From: Planctomycetota bacterium
GTDB lineage: Bacteria; Planctomycetota; UBA1135; UBA2386
Reading direction: 5' to 3'
DNA: 64,000 nt
NCBI GenBank assembly: GCA_046290465.1
Contig: JBKAGP010000001.1
Coordinates: 2,688,001-2,752,000, forward strand
Shown here one piece after another: positions 48,322-63,886 of this stretch (positions are counted from its first letter, which is position 1; the number at the start of each line of letters is the position of its first letter). A program made the position numbers and the translations under genes. The notes beneath the pieces are model-generated. The model had not been told where the DNA came from, made no database searches, and was given only the letters and a program-made list of their open reading frames with translations.

Positions 48322-48370
48322 ATGCACTGTATCGCAGCATCCGAGCTGCGAATGATGCGATATCCTGCTT
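48322..48370. promoter_or_regulatory. putative BoxR/BzdR-type operator pair
   Basis: ATGCA-CTGTAT-CGCAG (48322-48337) and ATGCG-ATATCC-TGCTT (48355-48370), degenerate TGCA-N6-TGCA in AT-richer DNA upstream of boxC. Confidence 0.4.
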
Positions 48371-48435
48371 GCGATCAAGAGCTGAGGATCCGACACTGTT
48401 TCCCCTCACTTTCAGGCTCTCAGATCGCTGGCCGC

Positions 48436-50073
48436 ATGACCGACTTCAACCGACACCCCGACACCTACCACCACTGGAAGCTCGAGTTCGACGGCGACGT
48501 CGCGCACCTGCGCATGAACGTCAACCCGGACCACCCCTTCCGTGACGGCTACGAACTCAAGCTCAACAGCTACGACCTGTCGGTCGACATGGAGCTGGCG
48601 GACGCGATCCAACGCCTGCGCTTCGAGCACCCCAACGTCAAGGCGCTGGTCGTCGGCAGCGGCCAGGAGCGCGCGTTCTGCGCGGGCGCGAACATCGTGA
48701 TGCTCAAGAGCAGCACGCACCCCTTCAAGGTGAACTTCTGCAAGTTCACCAACGAGACGCGCCTGAGCCTCGAGGACTACAGCCAGAACTCGGGCGTGCG
48801 TTCGGTGTGCGCGATCAACGCGGCGTGCGCCGGTGGCGGCTACGAGCTGGCGCTGGCCTGCGACGAGATCCACCTGGTCAACGACAACAACTCGGCCGTG
48901 TCGCTGCCCGAGGTGCCGCTGCTGGGCGTGCTGCCGGGCACCGGCGGCCTGACCCGCCTGGTCGACAAGCGCAAGATCCGCCGCGACCACGCCGACGTGT
49001 TCTGCACGATGGCCGAGGGCCTGCGCGGCAAGAAGGCGCTCAAGTGGAACTTCGTCGACGCGATCTGGCCGAAGTCGAAGTTCACCGACGCGATCGCCAA
49101 CCGCGCCAGCGAGATCGCCGGCGAGGCCAAGGACAAGGGTGCTGCCAAGGGCATCGAACTGAAGCCGATCGCCTATGAGAAGAGCGAAGAAGACGGCAAG
49201 ACCACGATGAAGTGGGAGCACGTCGAGGTCGTCGTCGAGCCGGGCCAGCGCCTGGCGCGCATCACGTTCACCGGCCCGATCGGCGACCAGCCGAAGGACG
49301 GCGCCGGCTTCGAGGCCGCGGGCTGCGACACCTGGGCGCTCAAGGCCTGGCGCGAGTTCGACGACGCGCTGCTGCAGCTGCGCTTCGACTACGAGGAGAT
49401 CGGCCTGGTCGTGCTCGAGACCCGCGGCGACCGCGGCGCGCTGGTCGAACTCGAGAAGACGCTCGACGCCAACCAGAACCACTGGCTCTGCAAGGAGATC
49501 CTGCTGCACATGGCGCGGGTCTGCCGCCGCTGGGACCTGATGGCGCGCTCGACCTACGCGCTGGTCGACGAGAAGGGCTGCGCCGCCGGCGCGTTCCTCG
49601 AGCTGATGATGGCCTGCGACCGCATCTACGCCAACGACGTCGACGAGGTCGAGTTCGTTGTCGGCCCGCTGAGCGACGGCGACCTGCCGATGAGCCACGG
49701 CCTCAGCCGCCTGCACAACCGCTTCCTGGCGACGCCCGAGCAGGGCGAGAAGCTCGCCAAGGAGCAGCCGACGCTGATCGCGCCCGAAGCCGACGAAGAA
49801 GGCCTCGTCACCTACCTGCTCGACCCGCTCGACTGGGAGGACGACGTGCGCATCGCGCTCGAGGAGCGGGTCTCGATGTCGCCCGATGCCCTCACCGGCA
49901 TGGAGGCCTCGCTCCGCTTCGGCGGCGCCGAGAACTGCGACAGCAAGATCTTCGGCCGCCTCAGCGCCTGGCAGAACTGGATCTTCACGCGTCCGAACGC
50001 CACCGGCGACGAAGGCGCACTCACCCGCTACGGCGCGCCCGAGGGCGCGCAGTTCGACTGGCGCCGCACCTAA
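48436..50073 (+). CDS. boxC: 2,3-epoxybenzoyl-CoA dihydrolase
   Basis: YxHWKL, LKLNSYDL.VD.EL, KVNFCKFTNETR, LPEVPLLGVLPGTGG, SPDALTGME, FGRL.AWQNWIF.RPNA. Confidence 0.96.
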   Translation: MTDFNRHPDTYHHWKLEFDGDVAHLRMNVNPDHPFRDGYELKLNSYDLSVDMELADAIQRLRFEHPNVKALVVGSGQERAFCAGANIVMLKSSTHPFKVNFCKFTNETRLSLEDYSQNSGVRSVCAINAACAGGGYELALACDEIHLVNDNNSAVSLPEVPLLGVLPGTGGLTRLVDKRKIRRDHADVFCTMAEGLRGKKALKWNFVDAIWPKSKFTDAIANRASEIAGEAKDKGAAKGIELKPIAYEKSEEDGKTTMKWEHVEVVVEPGQRLARITFTGPIGDQPKDGAGFEAAGCDTWALKAWREFDDALLQLRFDYEEIGLVVLETRGDRGALVELEKTLDANQNHWLCKEILLHMARVCRRWDLMARSTYALVDEKGCAAGAFLELMMACDRIYANDVDEVEFVVGPLSDGDLPMSHGLSRLHNRFLATPEQGEKLAKEQPTLIAPEADEEGLVTYLLDPLDWEDDVRIALEERVSMSPDALTGMEASLRFGGAENCDSKIFGRLSAWQNWIFTRPNATGDEGALTRYGAPEGAQFDWRRT

Positions 50074-50150
50074 CGGCCCGGACGCCAACACCCAACCGAT
50101 CACCTTTCCCTGAGGGGCATCCTTTCCTCACGGATTTCCAAGGCAACCTG

Positions 50151-51569
50151 ATGAGCAGCGTCGACCTCGAAGCAAAGATCCCGAACAACGTCGGACTCCG
50201 CGACAACAAGCGCCTGATGATGGCGCTCGAAAAGTGGCAGCCGAAGTTCCTCGACTGGTGGAAGACTGTCGGCCCGACGGACTTCAACGAGGACCAGATC
50301 TACCTGCGCACCGCCGTCGGCGTCGGCAAGGGCGGCTGGGCGCACTTCGACTACGTGAAGATGCCGGACTACCGCTGGGGCATCTTCCTCGCGGACGGGC
50401 CGGACGATCGCAAGATCCACTTCGGTGACAACATGGGCAGCGACGCCTGGCAGACCGTGCCGGGTGAGTTCCGCAACCGCCTGCGTCGCCTGATCGTCAC
50501 GCAGGGCGACACCGAGCCGGCGTCGGTCGAGCAGCAGCGCATGCTGGGCCACACCTGCCCGTCGCTCTACGACCTTCGCTCGCTGTTCCAGGTCAACGTC
50601 GAGGAAGGCCGCCACCTGTGGGCGATGGTCTACCTGCTGCAGACCTACTTCGGTGCCGACGGCCGCGACGAGGCCGAGGCGCTGCTCGAGCGCAACTCCG
50701 GCGACGTCGACAACCCGCGCATCCTCGAGGCGTTCAACTACCCGGTCACCAACTGGCTGGACTTCTTCTGCTTCACGGCCTTCATGGACCGGGACGGCAA
50801 GTACCAGCTGTCGTCGCTGGCCGAGTCGAGCTTCGACCCGCTGGCGCGTTCGACGCAGTTCATGCTGGCCGAGGAGGCCTACCACCTGCAGACCGGTGAG
50901 AACGGCGTCGGCCGCATCGTCAAGCGCACCGGTGAGCTGATGGCCGAGGGCAAGGACCCGCGCACCGAAGGCGCGATCCCGCTCGACATGATCCAGCGCT
51001 ACTGCAACTTCTGGTTCACCGGCTCGATGGACCTGTTCGGCGGCGAGGACTCGACCAACGCCGCCGAGGCGTTCGCGATGGGCCTGAAGGGCCGCTACCG
51101 CGAGTCGGACGGCATCTACAAGGACCCGAAGGCGCTCAACGCCGAGTACCGCCTGCAGGTGCCGACCGACGACGGCAAGCTCGAGGATAAGGACATCCCG
51201 CTGCGCCGCGCGATGAACGCGGTCCTGCTGGACGCCTACATCGCCGACTGCAGCCGCATCGTGCAGCGCTGGAACCGCGAGCTGAAGAAGCTCGGCGTCG
51301 ACCAGACGATCCAGTTGCCCGACCGCAAGTTCAACCGCCACCAGGGCGTCTACGCCGGCTACAAGTTCAACCCGCAGGGTGAGCTGATCGACGAGGCGAC
51401 CTGGACGCACGAGCACACCAAGTGGCTGCCGACGCAGGCGGACCGCGAGTACGTCGACTCCTGCATGGTCAAGGTCACCGAGCCCGGCAAGTTCGCGAAC
51501 TACATCGCGCCGCCGCAGAACGGCCCGAACAACCAGCCGATCGACTTCGAGTACGTCAAGTTCCACTAG
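50151..51569 (+). CDS. boxB: benzoyl-CoA 2,3-epoxidase di-iron subunit
   Basis: KIPNNV, YLRTAV, MPDYRWGIF, QGDTEPASVEQQ, EEGRH, DRDGKYQL, EEAYH. Confidence 0.96.
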   Translation: MSSVDLEAKIPNNVGLRDNKRLMMALEKWQPKFLDWWKTVGPTDFNEDQIYLRTAVGVGKGGWAHFDYVKMPDYRWGIFLADGPDDRKIHFGDNMGSDAWQTVPGEFRNRLRRLIVTQGDTEPASVEQQRMLGHTCPSLYDLRSLFQVNVEEGRHLWAMVYLLQTYFGADGRDEAEALLERNSGDVDNPRILEAFNYPVTNWLDFFCFTAFMDRDGKYQLSSLAESSFDPLARSTQFMLAEEAYHLQTGENGVGRIVKRTGELMAEGKDPRTEGAIPLDMIQRYCNFWFTGSMDLFGGEDSTNAAEAFAMGLKGRYRESDGIYKDPKALNAEYRLQVPTDDGKLEDKDIPLRRAMNAVLLDAYIADCSRIVQRWNRELKKLGVDQTIQLPDRKFNRHQGVYAGYKFNPQGELIDEATWTHEHTKWLPTQADREYVDSCMVKVTEPGKFANYIAPPQNGPNNQPIDFEYVKFH

Positions 51570-51737
51570 CCGGCTTGGCTCGCGGAGCGAGCCGGACCGA
51601 CTGGGTTCCACTTCGGATCGTGGCTACGTGGAGGCATCCTCCGCGAGGCCATCCGCAACCGGCCCGCTGCCGCGATCCTCGGCCTCGCTTCGCGAGGCGA
51701 TGCGCCTTCGGCGCTCCCCTGTTGCGCCTGAATCCTG

Positions 51738-52073
51738 ATGACGAATCGTCTTTGTTATGTCTGTGAAGGCGGCGACTGCACCGAGAAGGGCAGCGGCGAC
51801 CTGTTCGACAAGCTCCGCGACCTGGTCAAGCAGTTCGACCCGGACGAGGAGCGCATCAAGGTGCGCCGCTACCCGTGCTTCGGCGCGTGCGAGCAGGGCA
51901 TCAACGTGACGCTGTTCCCCGACAAGGTGTTCTACAGCACCGTCACCGAGAACGACCTCGCCGAGATCGTCGCGCACATCAAGGGCGAGGGCGAGGTCCC
52001 CGAACGCCTGACCGGCAAGTGCGAGCCGGACGTCGAGCAGATCATCTGGGACATGCTCGACAGTCCTTACTAG
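51738..52073 (+). CDS. thioredoxin-like (NuoE-type) [2Fe-2S] ferredoxin
   Basis: C9-x4-C14-x32-C47-x3-C51, G.N..P..V.Y..V...D...IV..H. Confidence 0.88.
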   Translation: MTNRLCYVCEGGDCTEKGSGDLFDKLRDLVKQFDPDEERIKVRRYPCFGACEQGINVTLFPDKVFYSTVTENDLAEIVAHIKGEGEVPERLTGKCEPDVEQIIWDMLDSPY

Positions 52074-55228: not shown

Positions 55229-56562
55229 GCGAGGGACATCAGGGCCGCGACGCGTTCGTGCACGCGCTGCTGCAGGAGGAGCTGGGCAGCGAGCCGCGGC
55301 CGGCGAGCGCCGACGAACTGCTGCAACGCCTCGAGCTCGGCGACGGCGCCCGCGCGTTCGCCCGTGCCGCCGGCCAGGCGCCGGCACGGCAGCGCAGCTG
55401 GATCGCGCGGAGGTGGCCGCTGGTCGCGGCGGCGGTCGCGGTGGTCGCCGTCGGAGCGACGTTCGCGCAGGACTGGTTCGGTGGCAATGCGCCGTCCGAC
55501 GACGAGGTCGATCGACCCGAGGTCCCGAACGACCAGGACCCGCAGCCAGAGGACCGGACCGTCCCGATCCGCGATCTCGCCCACTTCGAGCAGCTGGTGC
55601 CGCAGATCCGCGGCGTGTCGGTCGAGGTCCTGCGGCTGCACGACGCCAACCTGCCGTTCGAGGTCGAGGTCGCGGGCCACCCGATCGGGATGACGCAGCA
55701 CGCGTGCGAGCCGTTCGTCGCGGCGCTGGCCGACGACCTCGCGTTGCTCGAGCCGGCCGCGGCGGAATGGCAGAACCAGCTGACGTTCGAACTGAAGGAC
55801 GGCCGCTCGATCGAGGGCGCCATCTATCCCTACGGCGGCGCTGGCGTGCTGCGCGTGCACCTGCAGGGTCTGAAGGGCGATCTCGGGGTCGGCGGCACGG
55901 CCGGCAACATGCTGCGCGACCTGCTGAAGGACGGCGTCTTCCAGGCTTGCTACCAGCGAGGCATCGTGACCCGGGGCCGACCGCTGAAGGAGGTCCCGCG
56001 CGACGCGACCGCGCTGCGGATCTTCCAGCAGAGCGACGAGGACCTGAGGCTGCTGTCGGAGTTCTCACGGCTGACGAAGCTCGACGTCTCCGGCCTTCGC
56101 AACACGCTCGGCGAAGTCGGGCATGGCGCGATCGCCAAGGCCTGCCCGCAGCTCGAGGAGCTGGTGCTCGACGGCGCGATGCTGCCGGACACCACACTGC
56201 GCGTGCTCGGCGACCTGACGAAGCTGAAGCGGCTGTCGCTGCGCGGCGTGCGCGGCTTCGCCGGCACCGGCTTCGAGCACTACACCCATAGCCAGAAGCA
56301 CCGCGACGGTCCGACCGAGGTCGACCTGTCCTACTGCAAGTCGCTGTCCGACGCGGGCCTCAGGGCGATCTGTGCCTGGGATCCCGAGGTGTTGCGGCTG
56401 CAGGGAGCCGGCGCCGGGATCACACGCAGCGGCTTCGAGGCCCTGCAGAGGACCCGGCGACTGCGCGAACTCGACCTGCGGTCGTTCTCGATGAAGGACA
56501 AGGGCATGCTGCCGGTCCTCAACGCGCTGCTCCGGCGCGAGGGGCTGAAGGTGCTGCGCTAG
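55225..56562 (+). CDS. membrane-anchored putative anti-sigma factor with C-terminal leucine-rich repeats
   Basis: ATGA overlap with sigma; single TM; LRR units LTKLDVSG, LEELVLDG, LKRLSLRG, VDLSYC, LRELDL. Confidence 0.75.
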   Translation: MSEGHQGRDAFVHALLQEELGSEPRPASADELLQRLELGDGARAFARAAGQAPARQRSWIARRWPLVAAAVAVVAVGATFAQDWFGGNAPSDDEVDRPEVPNDQDPQPEDRTVPIRDLAHFEQLVPQIRGVSVEVLRLHDANLPFEVEVAGHPIGMTQHACEPFVAALADDLALLEPAAAEWQNQLTFELKDGRSIEGAIYPYGGAGVLRVHLQGLKGDLGVGGTAGNMLRDLLKDGVFQACYQRGIVTRGRPLKEVPRDATALRIFQQSDEDLRLLSEFSRLTKLDVSGLRNTLGEVGHGAIAKACPQLEELVLDGAMLPDTTLRVLGDLTKLKRLSLRGVRGFAGTGFEHYTHSQKHRDGPTEVDLSYCKSLSDAGLRAICAWDPEVLRLQGAGAGITRSGFEALQRTRRLRELDLRSFSMKDKGMLPVLNALLRREGLKVLR

Positions 56563-56670
56563 AAGACCGCGGCCGCAGAAGAAGCTCTGGTCCTCGTCCA
56601 GCCCGGTCGCGCCGATGCCGCTACCCGCGAACAGGTAGCTGTAGCCGCCGAAGAGCGAGACGTACACGAA
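56559..56670 (-). pseudogene. 3' relic of an AlgE-like outer-membrane porin gene
   Basis: FVYVSLFGGYSYLFAGSGIGATGLDEDQSFF, then with a one-base frameshift AAAVF-stop; resembles the final two beta-strands of this porin family. Confidence 0.5.
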
Positions 56671-56696
56671 GACGCGCCGGGCAATGCCGGCGCGTC
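56671..56696 (-). terminator. hairpin downstream of S46 gene
   Basis: GACGCGCCGG-N6-CCGGCGCGTC 10-bp stem. Confidence 0.55.
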
Positions 56697-56727
56697 GTCA
56701 CGTTGGGCAGGCTGCCAGCAGCTGCGC

Positions 56728-58380
56728 CTACTTGGCGCCGGTCAGCTCCTGCAGCAGCGCCTTCTCCTCGTAGATCTTGTCGAGGGCCTCGACCATGATC
56801 GCCGTGTGCACGCCGACGCAGCGGTTGACCTCTTCGTCGAACCAGTAGTTGCCCGGCAGCGACTCGATGTTGCCGTCGAACACCAGGCCGACGACCTTCG
56901 CGTTGCGGTCCAGGATCGGGCTACCCGAGTTGCCGCCGATGATGTCGCAGGTGCAGACGAAGTTGTACGGCGTGTTCCAGTCGAGCTTGCCCTTGGCGTC
57001 GAGCCACTGCTTGGGCAGATCGAACGGGTGCTCGTTGTCGAACGCGGCGTTGCGCTCGTAGAGGCCGTGCACGGTGGTCTTCGGCGAGACCTTGGTGGTG
57101 CCCGCTTCGTAGCCCTTGACGGTGCCGTAGGCCAGACGCAGCGTGAACGTCGCGTCGGGGTAGTTCTTGTCGCCGTAGACGTCGAAGCGCGCCTTGTTGA
57201 TCGTCGACTTGTGCTCGGCGACCGCCTCGGTGGCCGCCGCCATGTCGCGGCGCATGACCTGGAAGTTGACGCGCTCACCCGAGTGCTTGGCGACCAGCTT
57301 CTCCATCTCTTCCTTGATCGCGGCGAACGCGGCCTTGACCTCTTCCTTGCCCGACTGCTCGATCAGCTCTTCGTCGCGCGCCTTGATCAGCGCCATTCGA
57401 TCCTCGTCGAGCAGGCCGTTGAGGTGGCCGGTGAACGCCTTGAGGCTGTTCATCTGGCCGAAGTAGGTGTCGCGCAGGCGGAACGCCGCCTCTTCGCTCT
57501 GCTCCATGCGCTGCTTGATGACCTTGACGTTGTTGGTCAGCAGCGCGACGACCTGCGGGGTCCACAGGTCGCGGTGCATCACCATCTCGTCGTAGGTCAG
57601 CGAACGCTCGGTGCCGCCCGGGTGGCCCGACACGAACACGAGGTCGTCGGCCTTGGCGCCCTCGGTCTCGAACTGGAAGTACCACTTCGACGAGTCGATC
57701 GGCTTGCCGTCCTCGTAGACGCGGAAGAACGCGCAGTCGAGGCACCACCGCGGGTAGGTGAAGTTGTCGTAGTCACCGCCGTAGAACGCGACCTGCTTGG
57801 CGGGCGCGAACACCAGGCGCACGTCGTCGTAGACGTGGTAGACGTAGGCGCGGTACTGGTTGCCGTCGTAGAGCGACACCGGCTGCGCTTCGAGGTGCTT
57901 GCTCTCGTCGCTGAGGCCGTCGCAGATCTCGGTCAGCTTCGCCTCGACGTCGCCGTCCTCCTCGGCCTTGACCGCCATGATCTCGGCGGTGATGTCCTTG
58001 ACGTCGACGAGCTGGCGCAGCACCAGGTCGGTGCCGGGCACTTCCTTGCCGTAGAGGCGCGCGCTGAAGCCCGGCTCGACCCAGTCCTTCTCGGGCGTCG
58101 AGACCTTCTGGATGGTCTCGAGCGCGACGTGGTGGTTGGTCATGACCAGACCGTTCGGCGAGACGAACGAGCCCGAGCCGCCGGTGTCGAAGCGCACCGA
58201 GCCGAGGCGCACGTGGTCGAGCCACTCCTTGGTCGGCTCGAAGTCGTACTTCTCCTTCAGCTGCTTGAGCGGCAGGCTGTCGAACGGCCACATGCCCTCG
58301 TCGGGGCGGGTCGATTCGGGGAGGGTCGTGCCGAGCGCCAGAACGGCGAGGGCGAACGGGATGACAGGGGTGAATTGCAT
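56728..58380 (-). CDS. S46 family dipeptidyl peptidase (compact)
   Basis: Signal peptide, DEGMW, TNHHV, GGD.DNF.YPR, PDA.FTLRL.YG.VKGY, DIIGGNSGSP, FDGN. Confidence 0.92.
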   Translation of the reverse strand: MQFTPVIPFALAVLALGTTLPESTRPDEGMWPFDSLPLKQLKEKYDFEPTKEWLDHVRLGSVRFDTGGSGSFVSPNGLVMTNHHVALETIQKVSTPEKDWVEPGFSARLYGKEVPGTDLVLRQLVDVKDITAEIMAVKAEEDGDVEAKLTEICDGLSDESKHLEAQPVSLYDGNQYRAYVYHVYDDVRLVFAPAKQVAFYGGDYDNFTYPRWCLDCAFFRVYEDGKPIDSSKWYFQFETEGAKADDLVFVSGHPGGTERSLTYDEMVMHRDLWTPQVVALLTNNVKVIKQRMEQSEEAAFRLRDTYFGQMNSLKAFTGHLNGLLDEDRMALIKARDEELIEQSGKEEVKAAFAAIKEEMEKLVAKHSGERVNFQVMRRDMAAATEAVAEHKSTINKARFDVYGDKNYPDATFTLRLAYGTVKGYEAGTTKVSPKTTVHGLYERNAAFDNEHPFDLPKQWLDAKGKLDWNTPYNFVCTCDIIGGNSGSPILDRNAKVVGLVFDGNIESLPGNYWFDEEVNRCVGVHTAIMVEALDKIYEEKALLQELTGAK

Positions 58381-58491
58381 TGGAGTCCTCTACGTGCGCA
58401 GCCGGCTCGTGCGAGCTGCGGGGGGAGGATCATATGCAAACGGAGGCCGGGGTACGCGGTTCGTTCGGGGCACTTTGTGGCGGAGAGTTGG

Positions 58492-58513
58492 AGGATGAAC
58501 CAGGTACCGTACG
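58492..58513. repeat. degenerate half copy of REP-like element
   Basis: AGGATGAACCAGGTACCGTACG versus AGGATGAACCCGGTTCGGTACG in copy 1. Confidence 0.5.
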
Positions 58514-58591
58514 GCAACCGTACGTGGAGCGGCCCGCTGCATCTTGCGATGGAGCGGGCCGCTTGTGGGGATGGATCGCGAGGGTGGGCGG

Positions 58592-59686
58592 CTACTTGTC
58601 GCCGCCGTCCTCGGTCATCTTGGCGACGAGGTCCTTGGCGATGCGGGTCGCCTCCTCGCCGTCGTGGCCGCGGTAGTGGATCTTGAACTCGCTGTCCAGG
58701 ATCACGACCGTCGGCCAGCCCTTGACCGCCCAGTCGGTGGAGATCTTCTCCGGCCGACCTTCGTTCTGGTTCTGGAAGCTGCGCCAGTTGAGCTTGTTCT
58801 CGGCGATGGCCTTCTTGGCGCGCTCGATCGTGCTGTCACTGTTGACACCGACCAGAGCGAACGGCTTGTCCTTCATCTCTTCCACGAGCGACCGCTCGTG
58901 CGGGTACATGGCCCGGCAAGGGCCTCACCAGTCGCCCCAGAAGTCGAGGAAGATGACCTTGCCCTTGTAGTCGCTCAGCTTGAACGCCACGCCGTCGAGG
59001 TCGACGCCCGCGATGTCGGGGGCCGTGCAGCCGATCCCGAACTTCTCGCGCTCGTCGATCGCGCCGTTGATCTGGCCGACGAGGCCCTTGTCCTCGACCT
59101 TCCCGGCGATCGCGAGCAGCTTGGCGCGCGCCGCCTGGTACTCGTCACCCTCGATGTCGGCCGAGGTGATCGTCTTCTGGTGCGTCGCGAACAACGCCCA
59201 ACCGCGAACGTCCACCGACTTGCTCTGCATGAGCTTCGCGCGGGCGTCCTTGGCGAACTCCGGCGACACGATGCGATCGAGGAACGGGATCATGCGACCC
59301 ATCGCCGCCAGCTTGGGGCTGTCGATGTGGTCCTTCAGCAGCACCTCGAGGGCCGGACGCGCCTTCTGCTGGTCGAGGTTCACGACCATCATCAGGAAGT
59401 CGATGGCCTCGTCCTTGCCGGCGTAGTCCTTCGCGTATTCCAGCGCCTTGTCGGCGACCGGACCGAAGTCGGGGCGCATGCGCATCGCGCGAACGGGCTT
59501 GCCGTCCTGCGGCTTCTGCGCCTGCTTCATCGAATCGCGCCACTCCTTGACCGCCTGCTGCTGCAGGTCATTGAGCTCCTGCATGCGCTCGGCGGCGCTC
59601 GGCGCCTTGGTGACGGGTTTGGCGGGCTCCTGCGCGGCGACCGTGCCGAGCAGCAGAACCCCCGCCAGGAGGGATAGGGTCTTCAT
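58592..59686 (-). CDS. exported TlpA/ResA-like thiol-disulfide oxidoreductase, selenoprotein (UGA at 58925-58927 read as Sec; U-G-P-C)
   Basis: ORFs 58925-59686 and 58592-58909 are in frame and joined by TGA-GGC-CCT-TGC, giving LDFWGDW-U-GPC; downstream GVNSD and WPT..ILD complete the fold; 364 aa. Confidence 0.9.
58883..58924 (-). promoter_or_regulatory. putative bacterial SECIS element
   Basis: After UGA: GGCCC-UUGCC-GGGCC hairpin, then CACGAGC-GGUC-GCUCGUG stem-loop whose G-initiated loop starts 32 nt after UGA. Confidence 0.65.
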
Positions 59687-59844
59687 GTGGGTATCTCCGA
59701 GAACGTGTTCGCGCCAACCGGGCGCGACCCGACCACTCTGGACAGACGGACCCCGCGGTGCAACTCCAGCGTGGCCGGCCGCCGCGCCGTGTTACAGGGA
59801 TGACAAGGCTGCGGCGGCACCGCGGTCCACCGTAGGATGACGCC

Positions 59845-60669
59845 GTGACCGTCCGCTCCCGTGTGCACCAGGTGCTCGAAGGCCACCACGAGCCGATCGG
59901 CAGCATCGTGCGCTGGCTGCTCGCCGCGCTGATCGTTGCCAACGTCTTCGCCGTGGTCATGGAGACCGTGCCGTCGTTCCGCGCCCGCCACGCGACGGCG
60001 CTGGCCAACTTCGAGGCGGCATCGCTGGCGGTGTTCTCGATCGAATACGGGCTGCGCATGTGGTCGGCCGGCGAACACGCGCGCTTCCAAGGCCTGCTCG
60101 GCCGCCTGCGCTGGATGTTCACGCTCGGCGCGATCATCGACCTGCTGGCGATCGTCCCGGCGGTGTTCGTCACCGACATGCGGCTGGTGCGGCTGCTGCG
60201 CCTGGCCCGCCTGATCCGCATCGCCAAGCTCGGCCGCTACTCGCTCGCCCTGCGCACGCTGCGGCACGTGATGTTCGCGCGGCTGCCCGACCTGGTGTCG
60301 CTGAGCTTCGTGCTGCTGATCCTGCTGGTGCTCAGCTCGTCGCTGATGTTCCACCTCGAACACGACGCGCAACCGGAGCAGTTCTCGAGCATCCCGGCGA
60401 CGATGTGGTGGGGCATCGTCACGCTGACCACGATCGGTTACGGCGACATGGCACCGATCACGGTCGAAGGCCGCCTGCTCGGCGCGGTCGTCGCGGTGCT
60501 CGGCATCGGCATGTTCGCGCTGCCGGCCGGCCTGCTCGGCGGTGCGTTCGTCGAGGAGCTTGGCAAGGCCCGCCGGCAGGCGCGCGAACAGCGCGCGGCG
60601 GCGGTGGCCGAAACCCCGACGCAGTGCCCCCACTGCAACCGGCCGCTGTCCGCGGACGCAACCCCGTGA
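59845..60669 (+). CDS. voltage-gated potassium channel (6TM ion transporter)
   Basis: S4 RLVRLLRLARLIRIAK, pore TLTTIGYGD, C-terminal CPHC. Confidence 0.93.
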   Translation: MTVRSRVHQVLEGHHEPIGSIVRWLLAALIVANVFAVVMETVPSFRARHATALANFEAASLAVFSIEYGLRMWSAGEHARFQGLLGRLRWMFTLGAIIDLLAIVPAVFVTDMRLVRLLRLARLIRIAKLGRYSLALRTLRHVMFARLPDLVSLSFVLLILLVLSSSLMFHLEHDAQPEQFSSIPATMWWGIVTLTTIGYGDMAPITVEGRLLGAVVAVLGIGMFALPAGLLGGAFVEELGKARRQAREQRAAAVAETPTQCPHCNRPLSADATP

Positions 60670-60679
60670 CGCCATCGAC

Positions 60680-62002
60680 ATGAAGGGCTCCCGCCTGCAC
60701 AAGCTCTGGGACCAGCTGACCTCGAGCTACTGGTTCGTGCCGCTGGTCGTGACCGGCATGATGATCGCGCTGGGCTTCGCGCTGGTCGCGCTCGACCGCT
60801 CGCCGACATCGGTCGACTGGATCTCGTGGATGGACGCGAGCCAGCCAGAAGGCGCGCGCGCGCTGCTGTCGACGATCGCCGGGGCGACGATCACGATCGC
60901 CAGCCTGACGTTCTCGATCACGATCGTGGCGCTGACGCTGGCGTCGGGGCAGTTCGGCAACCGACTGCTCTACAAGTTCATGCGCAGCCGGGTCAGCCAG
61001 TGCGCGCTCGGCACGTTTGTCGGCGTGTTCGCGTACTGCCTGGTGGTGCTGCAGAGCGTGCGCTCGGGGCCGGCCGAGCCGTTCGTACCCCGGCTGGCGA
61101 CGAGCCTCGCGGTGGCGTTCGCGATCGCCGGCGTCGGGCTGCTGGTCTACTTCATCCACCACGTCGCGCTGTCGATCCAGGCGACCACGATCATCGCGTC
61201 GGTCAGCGAGGACCTGCGCGACAGCATCGAGCGCTTCTTCCCGGCGGATCGGGACGGATCGCGCGACGACGACGACCGCGAGGCCTCGGCGGCGCCCGAC
61301 GGCCAGGCGGTGCGCGCGGCCCGCGGCGGCATCCTGCAGGTCGTCGAGGCCGACGGGCTGGTGGCGATCGCGAAGGAACACGGCGCCTGCTTCCACCTCG
61401 AGCGACGGCCGGGCGACTACGTCGTCGAAGGAACGGCGCTCGCGCGGCTCTGTGGCGACACGCGGGTCGACGACGACGTGCTGCAGCGCGCCGCGCAGCA
61501 GTTCGTGCTCGGTCGCCGGCGCACGCTGATCCAGGACGTCGAGTTCGCGCTGCAGCAGCTGGTCGAGATCGCCGTGCGCGCACTGTCGCCGGGCATCAAC
61601 GATCCGTTCACCGCCTGCTCGTGCATCGACGAGCTGGCCTCGGCCCTGGCGCGCATCATGACCAAGGGCGAGCTGCCTGGCGGCATCCGCGATCAGGACG
61701 GCGTGCTGCGCGTCGCGCTCGACGTCACCGGCTTCGACGGCCTGACGGCCGCGGCGTTCGACCAGATCCGCCAGCACGCCGCGCGCAGCGTCGCCGTACG
61801 CATCCGCCTGCTCGACCGCCTGCGAGTGCTGGCCGGCCTCGCGGCGCGCGACGAACACCTCGCCGCGATCGAGCAACAGGCGGTCGCGACGTTCGACGGC
61901 GAAGGCGACGGCCTGGTCGACAAGGACCTGAGAGACCTGCGCGCCCGACGCGAACGGTTCGACCGGACGCTGGCGCAGCGACGCGGCGAACTTTCGGCGT
62001 GA
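60680..62002 (+). CDS. DUF2254 family membrane protein
   Basis: SYWFVP, AR.LLSTIAG, LTLASGQF..RL, FIHH, QLVEIAVRALSPGINDPFTA. Confidence 0.9.
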   Translation: MKGSRLHKLWDQLTSSYWFVPLVVTGMMIALGFALVALDRSPTSVDWISWMDASQPEGARALLSTIAGATITIASLTFSITIVALTLASGQFGNRLLYKFMRSRVSQCALGTFVGVFAYCLVVLQSVRSGPAEPFVPRLATSLAVAFAIAGVGLLVYFIHHVALSIQATTIIASVSEDLRDSIERFFPADRDGSRDDDDREASAAPDGQAVRAARGGILQVVEADGLVAIAKEHGACFHLERRPGDYVVEGTALARLCGDTRVDDDVLQRAAQQFVLGRRRTLIQDVEFALQQLVEIAVRALSPGINDPFTACSCIDELASALARIMTKGELPGGIRDQDGVLRVALDVTGFDGLTAAAFDQIRQHAARSVAVRIRLLDRLRVLAGLAARDEHLAAIEQQAVATFDGEGDGLVDKDLRDLRARRERFDRTLAQRRGELSA

Positions 62003-62106: not shown

Positions 62107-62502
62107 TCAACTCCAGTAGCTCGTGTGACCCGGGTTCTGCCCCTGTAGCACGACGGACTTCCAGCGGCCATCGGGCTCGAGCGTGATGTCGAGCAAGCTG
62201 CCACCTTCCGTCAGCATCGTGTAGCCACTGCCGTTGTTCGCCGCGTAGCCGCTCTCGTCCTCGAGCCAGATCGCGACGTTGTCGACCACGAGCCAGACGT
62301 CGACCCGGAAATTCCCTCGCTGCCCACCGACCGGCGCGACGGCGATGACGAGGTCACCCATGGTCGAGATCGGATCGCCCGCGGCGTCCGTGACCTCGTA
62401 GGTCGCCGGCCCGAGCGACGGCGGAGAACCAGCCGGTGCCGCAGCCCGAGCGCTGGAGACGAGAGTGAGGAGCAGGATGAGCAGCGAAGCGATGCGAATC
62501 AT
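62107..62502 (-). CDS. small secreted hypothetical protein
   Basis: Signal peptide (ARA-A) and beta-rich mature region; fills the gap between genes. Confidence 0.6.
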   Translation of the reverse strand: MIRIASLLILLLTLVSSARAAAPAGSPPSLGPATYEVTDAAGDPISTMGDLVIAVAPVGGQRGNFRVDVWLVVDNVAIWLEDESGYAANNGSGYTMLTEGGSLLDITLEPDGRWKSVVLQGQNPGHTSYWS

Positions 62503-62650
62503 GGGATCGTGCAGATGCCGGGATCGAGTCGTGCCGTTCGGACGACCAGTGGTCCGAACCGTCGCACGAGTTCGTCATGCCCCGGTCGCCACGGATGTTT
62601 CGGAAACACGTCCCTTTCCCCGCGGAAGCCCGCCGGCCTACCATCTCCGC

Positions 62651-63886
62651 GTGCCATCGCCTGCGCTGCTGCTCCCCGAACGATCCTCCACCGAGCCCGA
62701 GGGCCTGGCCGAATACCGCCAGCGCGGCGGCTACCAGGGCCTTTCCGCCGTCCAGCAGCGCGGTCCCGCGTGGCTGTGCGACGAGGTCGAGGCGTCGGGG
62801 CTGCGCGGGCGCGGTGGCGCGGCGTTCCCGACGATCCGCAAGTGGCGCCTGGCGGCGGATGCCGAGGGCGGCGAGAAGTACATCGTCGCCAATGGCGGCG
62901 AGCACGAGCCGGGCAGCAACAAGGACCGCCATCTGGTCGAACGGCATCCACACGCGGTGCTCGAGGGCCTGCTGTGTGCGGGCCTCGCGACCGGGGCGAG
63001 CAAGGGCTACCTGTACCTGATCGAGGACATGGATGGCCCGCGCAGGAGCGCCGAGATGGCGGTGCGCGAGGCGGAGCAAGCGGGGTTGCTGCCGTTTCCG
63101 GTCGAGATCCACCTCGGGCCGACGACCTACGTCGCCGGTGAGGAGACCGCGGCGCTCAACTCGATCGAGGGCCAGCCGGCCAAGCCTCGCAAGAAGCCGC
63201 CGTTCCCCGGCGAAGCGGGGCTGTTCGGCAAGCCGACGACGGTGAACAACACCGAGACGCTGGCGCACGTCGCGTGGATCGCGCGCGAGGGCAGCGCGCC
63301 GTTCGCCGCGATCGGCACCGCCGAGAGCAAGGGCACGCTGCTGTTCACGCTCGGCGACGAGGTGAACCGGCCCGGCGTCTACGAGTTGCCGTTCGGCGCC
63401 AGCTACCGCGACCTGATCGAGGGCTGCGGCGGCGGCGTCCGGGACGGCAAGGCGATCCGCGCGATCCTGCCGGCGATGTCGGCGCCGTTCCTGCACGCGA
63501 GCCTGCTCGACGTGCCGATCGGCTACGAGACGCTCGCCGCGCACGGCAGCGGCCCCGGCTGCGGCGGGGTGCGCATCGTGACCGAGGACACCGACGTGGT
63601 CGCGATGACGATCGAGATCGCCGAGTTCTTCATGAAGGAGCAGTGCGGCCAGTGCCCGCCGTGTCGCATGGAGACCAACCAGTTCGTGCACATCCTCAAG
63701 GCCGTGCAGGCCGGCAAGGGGCCGGGCTACGACGCCAAGCTGACCAGGCTGGCGACGTTCTCGCGCCGCAAGGGCCACTGCTCGTTGATCGAGATGGCGG
63801 CGGCTCCCGTGGTCAGCGCGCTGAGCGTGTTCGCCGACGACTTCGCCGCGGCCGCCGGCCCGGGCACGCCCGACGCCGACAGCTAG
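62651..63886 (+). CDS. stand-alone NuoF-like NAD(P)H-binding FMN/[4Fe-4S] protein
   Basis: SGLRGRGGAAFP, EPG..KDR, YVAGEETA, KPP.P...GL.GKPT.VNN.ETL, CGQCPPC...C. Confidence 0.9.
   Translation: MPSPALLLPERSSTEPEGLAEYRQRGGYQGLSAVQQRGPAWLCDEVEASGLRGRGGAAFPTIRKWRLAADAEGGEKYIVANGGEHEPGSNKDRHLVERHPHAVLEGLLCAGLATGASKGYLYLIEDMDGPRRSAEMAVREAEQAGLLPFPVEIHLGPTTYVAGEETAALNSIEGQPAKPRKKPPFPGEAGLFGKPTTVNNTETLAHVAWIAREGSAPFAAIGTAESKGTLLFTLGDEVNRPGVYELPFGASYRDLIEGCGGGVRDGKAIRAILPAMSAPFLHASLLDVPIGYETLAAHGSGPGCGGVRIVTEDTDVVAMTIEIAEFFMKEQCGQCPPCRMETNQFVHILKAVQAGKGPGYDAKLTRLATFSRRKGHCSLIEMAAAPVVSALSVFADDFAAAAGPGTPDADS

Follow-up and report, generated by a model that had tools for sequence, protein, structure and literature searches.

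A predicted exported TlpA-like selenoprotein encoded across an in-frame TGA codon in a Planctomycetota genome

Two adjacent open reading frames (ORFs) in the 64,000-nucleotide window (the whole stretch of DNA analysed here) very probably belong to a single gene, in which an in-frame UGA codon would be read as selenocysteine (Sec). The product is predicted to be an exported, 364-residue thiol-disulfide oxidoreductase of the TlpA/ResA type with U-G-P-C at its active site. That one selenoprotein spans both ORFs had been proposed in a preliminary description of this DNA; the retention of the TGA in relatives, the presence of Sec genes and a hairpin linked to the TGA all argue for it.

Gene layout and predicted protein

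Translation of positions 59686–58592 yields 253 residues ending in LDFWGDW, a TGA codon (58927–58925), and then GPCRAMYPHERSLV... in the same frame up to a stop codon; with the TGA read as a residue, the protein has 364 amino acids. Both pieces are present in the ORF list, as proteins of 253 and 105 residues, the latter beginning at a Met six codons past the TGA. The preliminary description had noted the continuous frame and placed the UGA at the first Cys of a W-x-G-P-C motif; retranslation reproduced both observations, with the UGA at codon 254 of 364, and located the gene on the minus strand, a direction absent from that description. The whole gene (58592–59686; this and the features below are all on the minus strand) comprises 364 codons with one in-frame TGA, at 58925–58927, whose predicted selenocysteine would be the nucleophile of U-G-P-C in the local sequence WGDWUGPC. 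The Cys that completes the UxxC motif, Cys257 (58916–58918), is kept in all 70 aligned rows. A Shine-Dalgarno-like GGAG (59695–59698), which probably acts as such, lies 8 nt 5' of the ATG.

Contigs from three other public runs (X3, X8 and X12) span codon 254, and no other letter occurs at 58925–58927; because these independent assemblies agree, the TGA is not a sequencing error, which settles the question of TGC or TGT in reads raised in the preliminary description. Public runs containing at least half of the sequence words include, by label, algae, marine, coral and aquaculture metagenomes. The RNA run X15 gave one 217-nt contig at 59036–59252, which stops short of the UGA. Promoter and terminator scans of 56500–60000 found nothing.

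The gene is flanked by genes for an S46 peptidase (downstream; 56728–58380, minus strand), a voltage-gated K+ channel-type protein (upstream; 59845–60669, plus strand) and a DUF2254 membrane protein (60680–62002, plus strand). Among 29 other loci in relatives, the S46 peptidase gene is adjacent in 10 and the K+ channel gene in eight, all in the same genus, and these neighbourhoods gave no functional or substrate lead. No cytochrome c maturation genes adjoin the gene described here. Elsewhere in the window, ORFs at 48322–52073 and 62465–63886 (plus strand) resemble boxC, boxB and genes for a small ferredoxin and a flavoprotein of the NuoF type.

The protein begins with a predicted signal peptide for the general secretory pathway (residues 1–18; 59633–59686), with a basic start, a hydrophobic core and V-A-A before Q19. 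Hydropathy analysis found only one strongly hydrophobic stretch, at residues 2–20, and most homologs have similar N-termini by eye. A single-sequence AlphaFold model was poor (pLDDT 50.7) and was replaced by an AlphaFold2 model built on a 70-row alignment (mean pLDDT 94). In this model, an all-helical N-terminal domain of nine helices (about residues 31–216; 59039–59596), which the preliminary description had anticipated, is followed by a TlpA/ResA-type thioredoxin domain (about residues 216–361; 58604–59041) with G-W-P325 at the cis-Pro position; the predicted fold is thus TlpA/ResA-like with a helical N-terminal domain. No Pfam match was found for the helical domain of this protein, and across 70 members of the family HEAT_2 was matched in two and TPR in one, all weakly.

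Matches to Pfam Redoxin (PF08534), AhpC-TSA (PF00578) and Thioredoxin_8, the first two over their cut-offs, cover residues 218–345 and span the TGA. The best structure and profile matches are ResA/DsbE/TlpA reductases, ranked above peroxiredoxins. Fold searches were dominated by the thioredoxin domain (mainly residues 212–362), and the sole match reaching into the helical domain was 4yod (residues 116–354, rmsd 6.0). The TlpA/ResA fold, the motif at the CxxC position and the cis-Pro loop are those of the TlpA-like group (cd02966). Met260 aligns with a conserved Glu of ResA (E in the 2lrn alignment), which we take to be Glu80, a residue with a role in ResA.

Conservation of the TGA codon and the downstream hairpin

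Searching the genome itself with tblastn gave 10 hits. Besides the gene there are three close paralogs that have the TGA and hairpin as well, a close Cys paralog in which the hairpin is missing, and a more distant TlpA that has a TGA without this hairpin; Cys thioredoxins account for the other four. Matches occur in 33 of 41 related genomes, with up to 11 family matches within one genome; the TGA is present in 97 of 100 matches and stands at the codon-254 position in all 30 inspected loci. Across the order and phylum, the active-site codon is TGA at 71 of 77 sites, drawn from loci L021–L093 (30 related-genome loci, three from a search with the Cys protein P0114 and 40 hand-chosen regions). In metagenomes, a pattern that put no constraint on the last base of the active-site codon and ended before the hairpin loop retrieved at least 120 loci; among the matches listed, this codon is TGA in 108 of 121 and TGC or TGT in 13. 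Close homologs therefore keep the UGA, which the preliminary description had allowed might be a simple nonsense mutation peculiar to this gene.

The thioredoxin domain was matched at E ≤ 1e-30 in 36 genomes of a 151-genome sample of the phylum, with TGA in 65 of 69 matches. The 34 genomes with the TGA form are all among the 110 with selA, and the gene turned up in none of the 41 genomes that gave no selA match. Since kin are not independent and selA is common (110/151), this co-occurrence is consistent with Sec insertion and not decisive.

The named homologs in protein databases are labelled Planctomycetota. As the preliminary description had predicted, annotation splits the gene: 109 of the 120 homologs listed (423 found; lengths 200–637 only) end exactly at DFWG[D/N]W. 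The other 11 comprise five with Cys at the Sec position (P0084, P0105, P0114, P0115 and P0119), one each with Leu and Arg, three starting just past the site and one without the site. Together with the Cys paralog in the same genome and the 13 Cys codons among the listed metagenome matches, these proteins bear out the alternation of Cys and UGA that the preliminary description had suggested looking for; as in bacterial selenoproteins, the UGA aligns with Cys in homologs and is kept in more than one organism.

Cys forms were otherwise scarce. Strict Cys-form patterns had no match in the metagenomes and none in 401 phylum genomes, the latter a weak result as there was no matched TGA control on those genomes, and a DNA search with P0114 gave only three loci, one of them Cys. 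This one, L051, has TGC, is 83% identical to P0114, and has a frame broken 58 codons upstream and intact hairpin DNA; its contig is titled an Actinomycetota MAG, possibly through misbinning or transfer. In three full-length homologs (P0023, P0095 and L077), the Sec position holds Leu, Arg or Val, through either loss of the nucleophile or base-calling errors. Tandem or fused copies were also seen (P0083, P0091 and P0092; L060, L083 and L091), including loci with two or three family copies in a row, and the database proteins that begin right past the UGA run into a second helical domain and a thioredoxin domain without Cys. In a tree of 76 rows and 132 columns, made by a quick method after masking the codons of the active site and the hairpin, 41 of 73 inner branches stayed open; the number of gains or losses of Sec or of the hairpin is not recoverable from it.

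The predicted bacterial SECIS element (58883–58900), assigned from conservation and the consensus model, has the sequence CACGAGC-GGUC-GCUCGUG, forms a 7-bp stem with a GGUC loop and encodes H-E-R-S-L-V. The preliminary description had reported this stem-loop with its loop 32 nt after the UGA; the loop indeed occupies +32 to +35, a UGA-to-loop spacing of 31 nt. In the portions of PMC13188914 covered, Fig. 2A gives the bacterial consensus as a loop of 3–9 nt with G in its first two nucleotides, a stem of 4–16 bp, a distance of 16–37 nt from the UGA and an energy of at most −7.5 kcal/mol; the hairpin lies within all of these limits, with −14 kcal/mol for a 43-nt piece. The folding proposed in the preliminary description thus agreed with the consensus, whereas the energy was not beyond chance: compared with shuffled sequences, the 43-nt piece had a z of −1.50 and was equalled by 13 of 200 shuffles, while three longer pieces were weaker. 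Since stability was not significant in any of the four folds, it is not used as support. At the same distance, only 21 of 8000 in-frame TGAs drawn at random from the genome are followed by a stem of at least seven pairs that ends in an NGUN tetraloop.

The hairpin stands out by its conservation. The GGUC loop is present in 63 of the 71 TGA forms of the 77-site set, that is, in every TGA form encoding R-S-L, and these residues are encoded by CGG TCG CTC in 63 of 63, versus usages of 19, 27 and 46% for the same codons elsewhere in these genes; nearby Gly, Pro, Leu and Ser columns, equally conserved in the protein, vary freely in codon. Among the metagenome matches listed (121 minus two that were too short and one duplicate), the exact hairpin core occurs in 100 of 106 distinct TGA forms, one more has a G-U pair and five lack it, versus none of the 12 Cys forms, which read HEREL, HEREM, HERDL or HERKL. 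By this contrast the hairpin travels with the UGA, and it likely costs the protein a Glu-to-Ser change. Covariation adds thin support because the hairpin is almost invariant: L042 has the one double change seen in the stem (C-G to A-U), and pairing survives single changes in L057, L087 and L125.

Eight of the 71 TGA forms lack the hairpin and share no common substitute. Hairpin-less TGA forms (L083, L084, L086, L089, L090 and L092; L126, L137, L162, L170 and L208) mostly have F-W-G-F-W before the TGA. HERSLV is kept in four of the Cys database proteins (P0105, P0114, P0115 and P0119); these and L051, with its hairpin beside TGC, may be recent reversions. Directly 3' of the UGA, folding also gives a short GGCCC/GGGCC hairpin (58909–58924); the Arg codon inside it is mostly CGG (93% of 61, and 97 of 118 among the metagenome matches listed).

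Selenocysteine machinery, other candidate genes and alternative readings

The genome, a single contig of 6.59 Mb with 70% GC and 94% completeness, encodes the machinery for Sec insertion, as the preliminary description had considered necessary. A genome search found selA (E 1e-109) as well as selB and selD, both exceeding their cut-offs; selD carries one in-frame TGA of its own, in S-A-G-U-A-A-K. With tRNA-Sec (Rfam RF01852; 72.8 bits, cut-off 47; anticodon UCA), selA, selB, selC and selD are all present. Only one of 58 tRNAs predicted by ARAGORN has a UCA anticodon, namely tRNA-Sec. TGA is the commonest stop codon, and since it terminates 1676 of 2794 long training ORFs, it is not reassigned in this genome.

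A codon-model screen of the genome gave 28 strict and 109 relaxed candidates, from which 17 further TGA sites were hand-picked and scanned; in 14 of these a family match extends across the TGA, in two there is no match, and one (G000:4902100) was rejected as the true stop between the RNase PH and Ham1 genes. The candidate selenoproteome numbers about 19 proteins, including SelD and four genes of the TlpA-like family; the screen was rough, and the figure is a minimum. Stems with AGUU, AGUUC or GGUC loops lie 19–27 nt past the TGA in other candidate genes. Twelve of the TGA sites (G000:C1 positions 4807444, 2767596, 3818597, 3206721, 1724890, 2322227, 6461678, 5433827, 3350466, 1490290, 3216888 and 1207500) are spanned by matches to MsrA, BCP-type and AhpC-type peroxiredoxins, a thioredoxin-like, a SelL-related, two deiodinase-like and an AhpD-like protein, ArsC, a DG zinc ribbon, a heavy-metal-binding protein and a second TlpA type.

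A DsbD-like gene (G000:C1:4520491, plus strand; L096) encodes two N-terminal DsbD_N-type repeats, a membrane domain and a C-terminal thioredoxin domain with U-G-S-C. It is matched in 27 of 41 related genomes, with TGA in 26 of 29 matches; its GGUC hairpin lies 44 nt past the TGA, outside the 16–37 nt consensus. An FG-GAP repeat protein with a signal peptide (G000:C1:3756620, plus strand; L106) has an in-frame TGA in N-W-U-C-I-G, followed 19 nt downstream by an 8-bp stem with an AGUUC loop. Its family is matched in 22 of 41 related genomes, with one TGA in each of 27 matches, at the same site in 12 of 12 loci (L111–L122). Two exported-looking proteins (G000:C1:1516015 and 3141743, both plus strand; L107 and L109), with TGA in G-I-G-G-U-S and G-C-T-U-N, have no Pfam or NCBIfam match and are possibly undescribed selenoproteins.

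Three readings compete with Sec insertion. Decaying paralogs occur in high-GC genomes, and the frame of one relative, L051, is broken, so a nonsense mutation leaving a pseudogene, or a miscalled TGC or TGT, might be considered; however, both halves of the gene are intact, three other assemblies agree, and the conservation of TGA at the same codon (30/30 loci, 71/77 sites) refutes this explanation, to which we give practically no credence. Gene callers annotate two genes, an exported helical protein of 253 residues and a 105-residue protein from the internal Met; a Met stands six codons past the TGA in 24 of 30 loci, and UGA termination under selenium shortage would also free the 253-residue piece. 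Yet the cut falls within the thioredoxin fold, past its first strand, the 105-residue piece has neither of the active-site residues and no signal peptide, there is no Met at that point in six of 30 loci, frame and spacing never change, and Cys forms with this architecture occur at full length (P0114, 34% identical across 358 columns), which makes two genes very improbable. Only slightly less improbable is that the UGA is read through as Cys or Trp, or independently of the hairpin, as the minority of TGA forms without a hairpin might suggest; against this, the sole UCA-anticodon tRNA found is tRNA-Sec, TGA is the main stop codon, and every genome with a TGA form in the phylum sample is selA-positive.

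The function of the protein is a separate matter. That the selenoprotein scavenges peroxide or selenol, works as an isomerase, or serves through its helical domain as a redox-gated chaperone in the manner of CnoX, rather than being a DsbD-fed reductase, is compatible with Sec insertion because it concerns function only. The large helical domain, with its weak HEAT/TPR signal in three of 70 members, Met260 in place of the conserved Glu of ResA, and neighbouring genes for an S46 peptidase and a K+ channel in place of ones for cytochrome c maturation would fit such a role, while the invariant resolving Cys and the ranking of ResA/DsbE/TlpA reductases as best matches speak against it; we regard it as an appreciable, if unlikely, alternative to the periplasmic reductase role, which is the most likely one.

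Predicted function and comparison with known systems

SelB/SECIS decoding and TlpA/ResA chemistry are established, and by analogy SelB carrying Sec-tRNA would bind the GGUC loop 31 nt downstream and decode the UGA. The signal peptide would export the protein, Sec254 would attack a substrate disulfide, and Cys257 would resolve the intermediate, leaving a selenenylsulfide that a DsbD-type membrane protein may re-reduce. This partnership is proposed from what is known of the two families. The DsbD-like gene of this genome also has a TGA in its UxxC motif; the two genes are not neighbours. The helical domain may select or hold substrates. One could tentatively extend this to a selenium-based periplasmic relay, in which Sec-DsbD would feed four or five exported Sec-TlpA paralogs whose helical domains would each choose different substrates, within a selenoproteome of at least about 19 proteins that includes an FG-GAP W-U-C family outside the 119-family inventory, and in which the SECIS element would have overwritten the protein (H-E-R-S-L-V in Sec forms versus H-E-R-E-L/M-V in Cys forms).

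The extracytoplasmic reductases ResA, DsbE/CcmG and TlpA use Cys and are mostly membrane-anchored single domains. Identity to them (PDB 1st9, 3gl3, 4grf and 1jfu) is only 19–32%, and scores are below the cut-offs of NF002854 ResA (67.8/170), NF047696 TlpA (51.3/230) and TIGR00385 DsbE (35.1/123). NF041054 (ResA-like WAxxUGC; 35.8/300) and NF053656 (TUGYCR; 25.1/100) likewise model thioredoxin-fold selenoproteins, and the protein is a member of neither; no NCBIfam model reaches its cut-off. CnoX is a thioredoxin-TPR chaperedoxin with holdase activity; the points of comparison with it are the weak TPR and HEAT_2 matches described above. As 109 of the 120 homologs listed end at the UGA and the family is without an NCBIfam model, these enzymes are entered as hypothetical proteins, and recognising the Sec codon corrects a systematic annotation error.

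A literature search, with most subscription journals outside its coverage, returned nothing on this subfamily or its hairpin, nothing on a Planctomycetota selenoproteome and nothing relevant on HERSLV; for bacterial FG-GAP selenoproteins nothing relevant appeared by title, and for TlpA, DsbD or periplasmic selenoproteins nothing on this family by title or start of abstract. In the portions covered, PMC4807772 (2016) reports Sec machinery in planctomycetes and lists in Table S9 two split "thiol-disulfide isomerase-like thioredoxin" candidates from planctomycete P1. Like the gene described here, these are planctomycete genes that are cut in two (by IMG) and have a Cys homolog (in Singulisphaera), but the table gives them no SECIS element by bSECISearch, and the comparison is one of annotation. 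The same portions describe four FG-GAP/ASPIC-UnbV candidates, with Gly aligned at the site, which may belong to the L106 family or to another.

UxxC TlpA-like selenoproteins are already a listed family, and this gene belongs to that kind. As far as the portions covered extend, the first report is PMC1088965, with four UxxC thiol-disulfide isomerase-like sequences in the Sargasso Sea set; Prx-like thiol:disulfide oxidoreductases are among the selenoproteins of PMC1794560; and Table 1 of PMC13188914 lists a "Thiol-disulfide isomerase-like protein" (TlpA-like; cd02966), a "Prx-like thiol:disulfide oxidoreductase" (PF00578) and a "Redoxin family protein" (PF08534), all UxxC and all predicted without experimental verification, with no FG-GAP family in that table and no occurrence of "Planctomycet" in those portions. 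Compared with the descriptions of these three families, the gene shares the TlpA-like fold, U at the first CxxC position and a coding-region hairpin after the UGA, and differs in its 190-residue helical N-terminal domain, the near-invariant GGUC hairpin that fixes HERSLV, and the expansion of paralogs in Planctomycetota. It reveals no new decoding mechanism or catalytic motif; it is a clean example of how a coding-region SECIS element holds its codons constant along with one amino acid (Ser in place of Glu), and it adds Planctomycetota to the lineages that are likely heavy users of selenium for redox reactions outside the cytoplasm. What is added to the known UxxC families is the hairpin contrast between Sec and Cys forms, a TGA-bearing DsbD as candidate partner, and the FG-GAP W-U-C lead.
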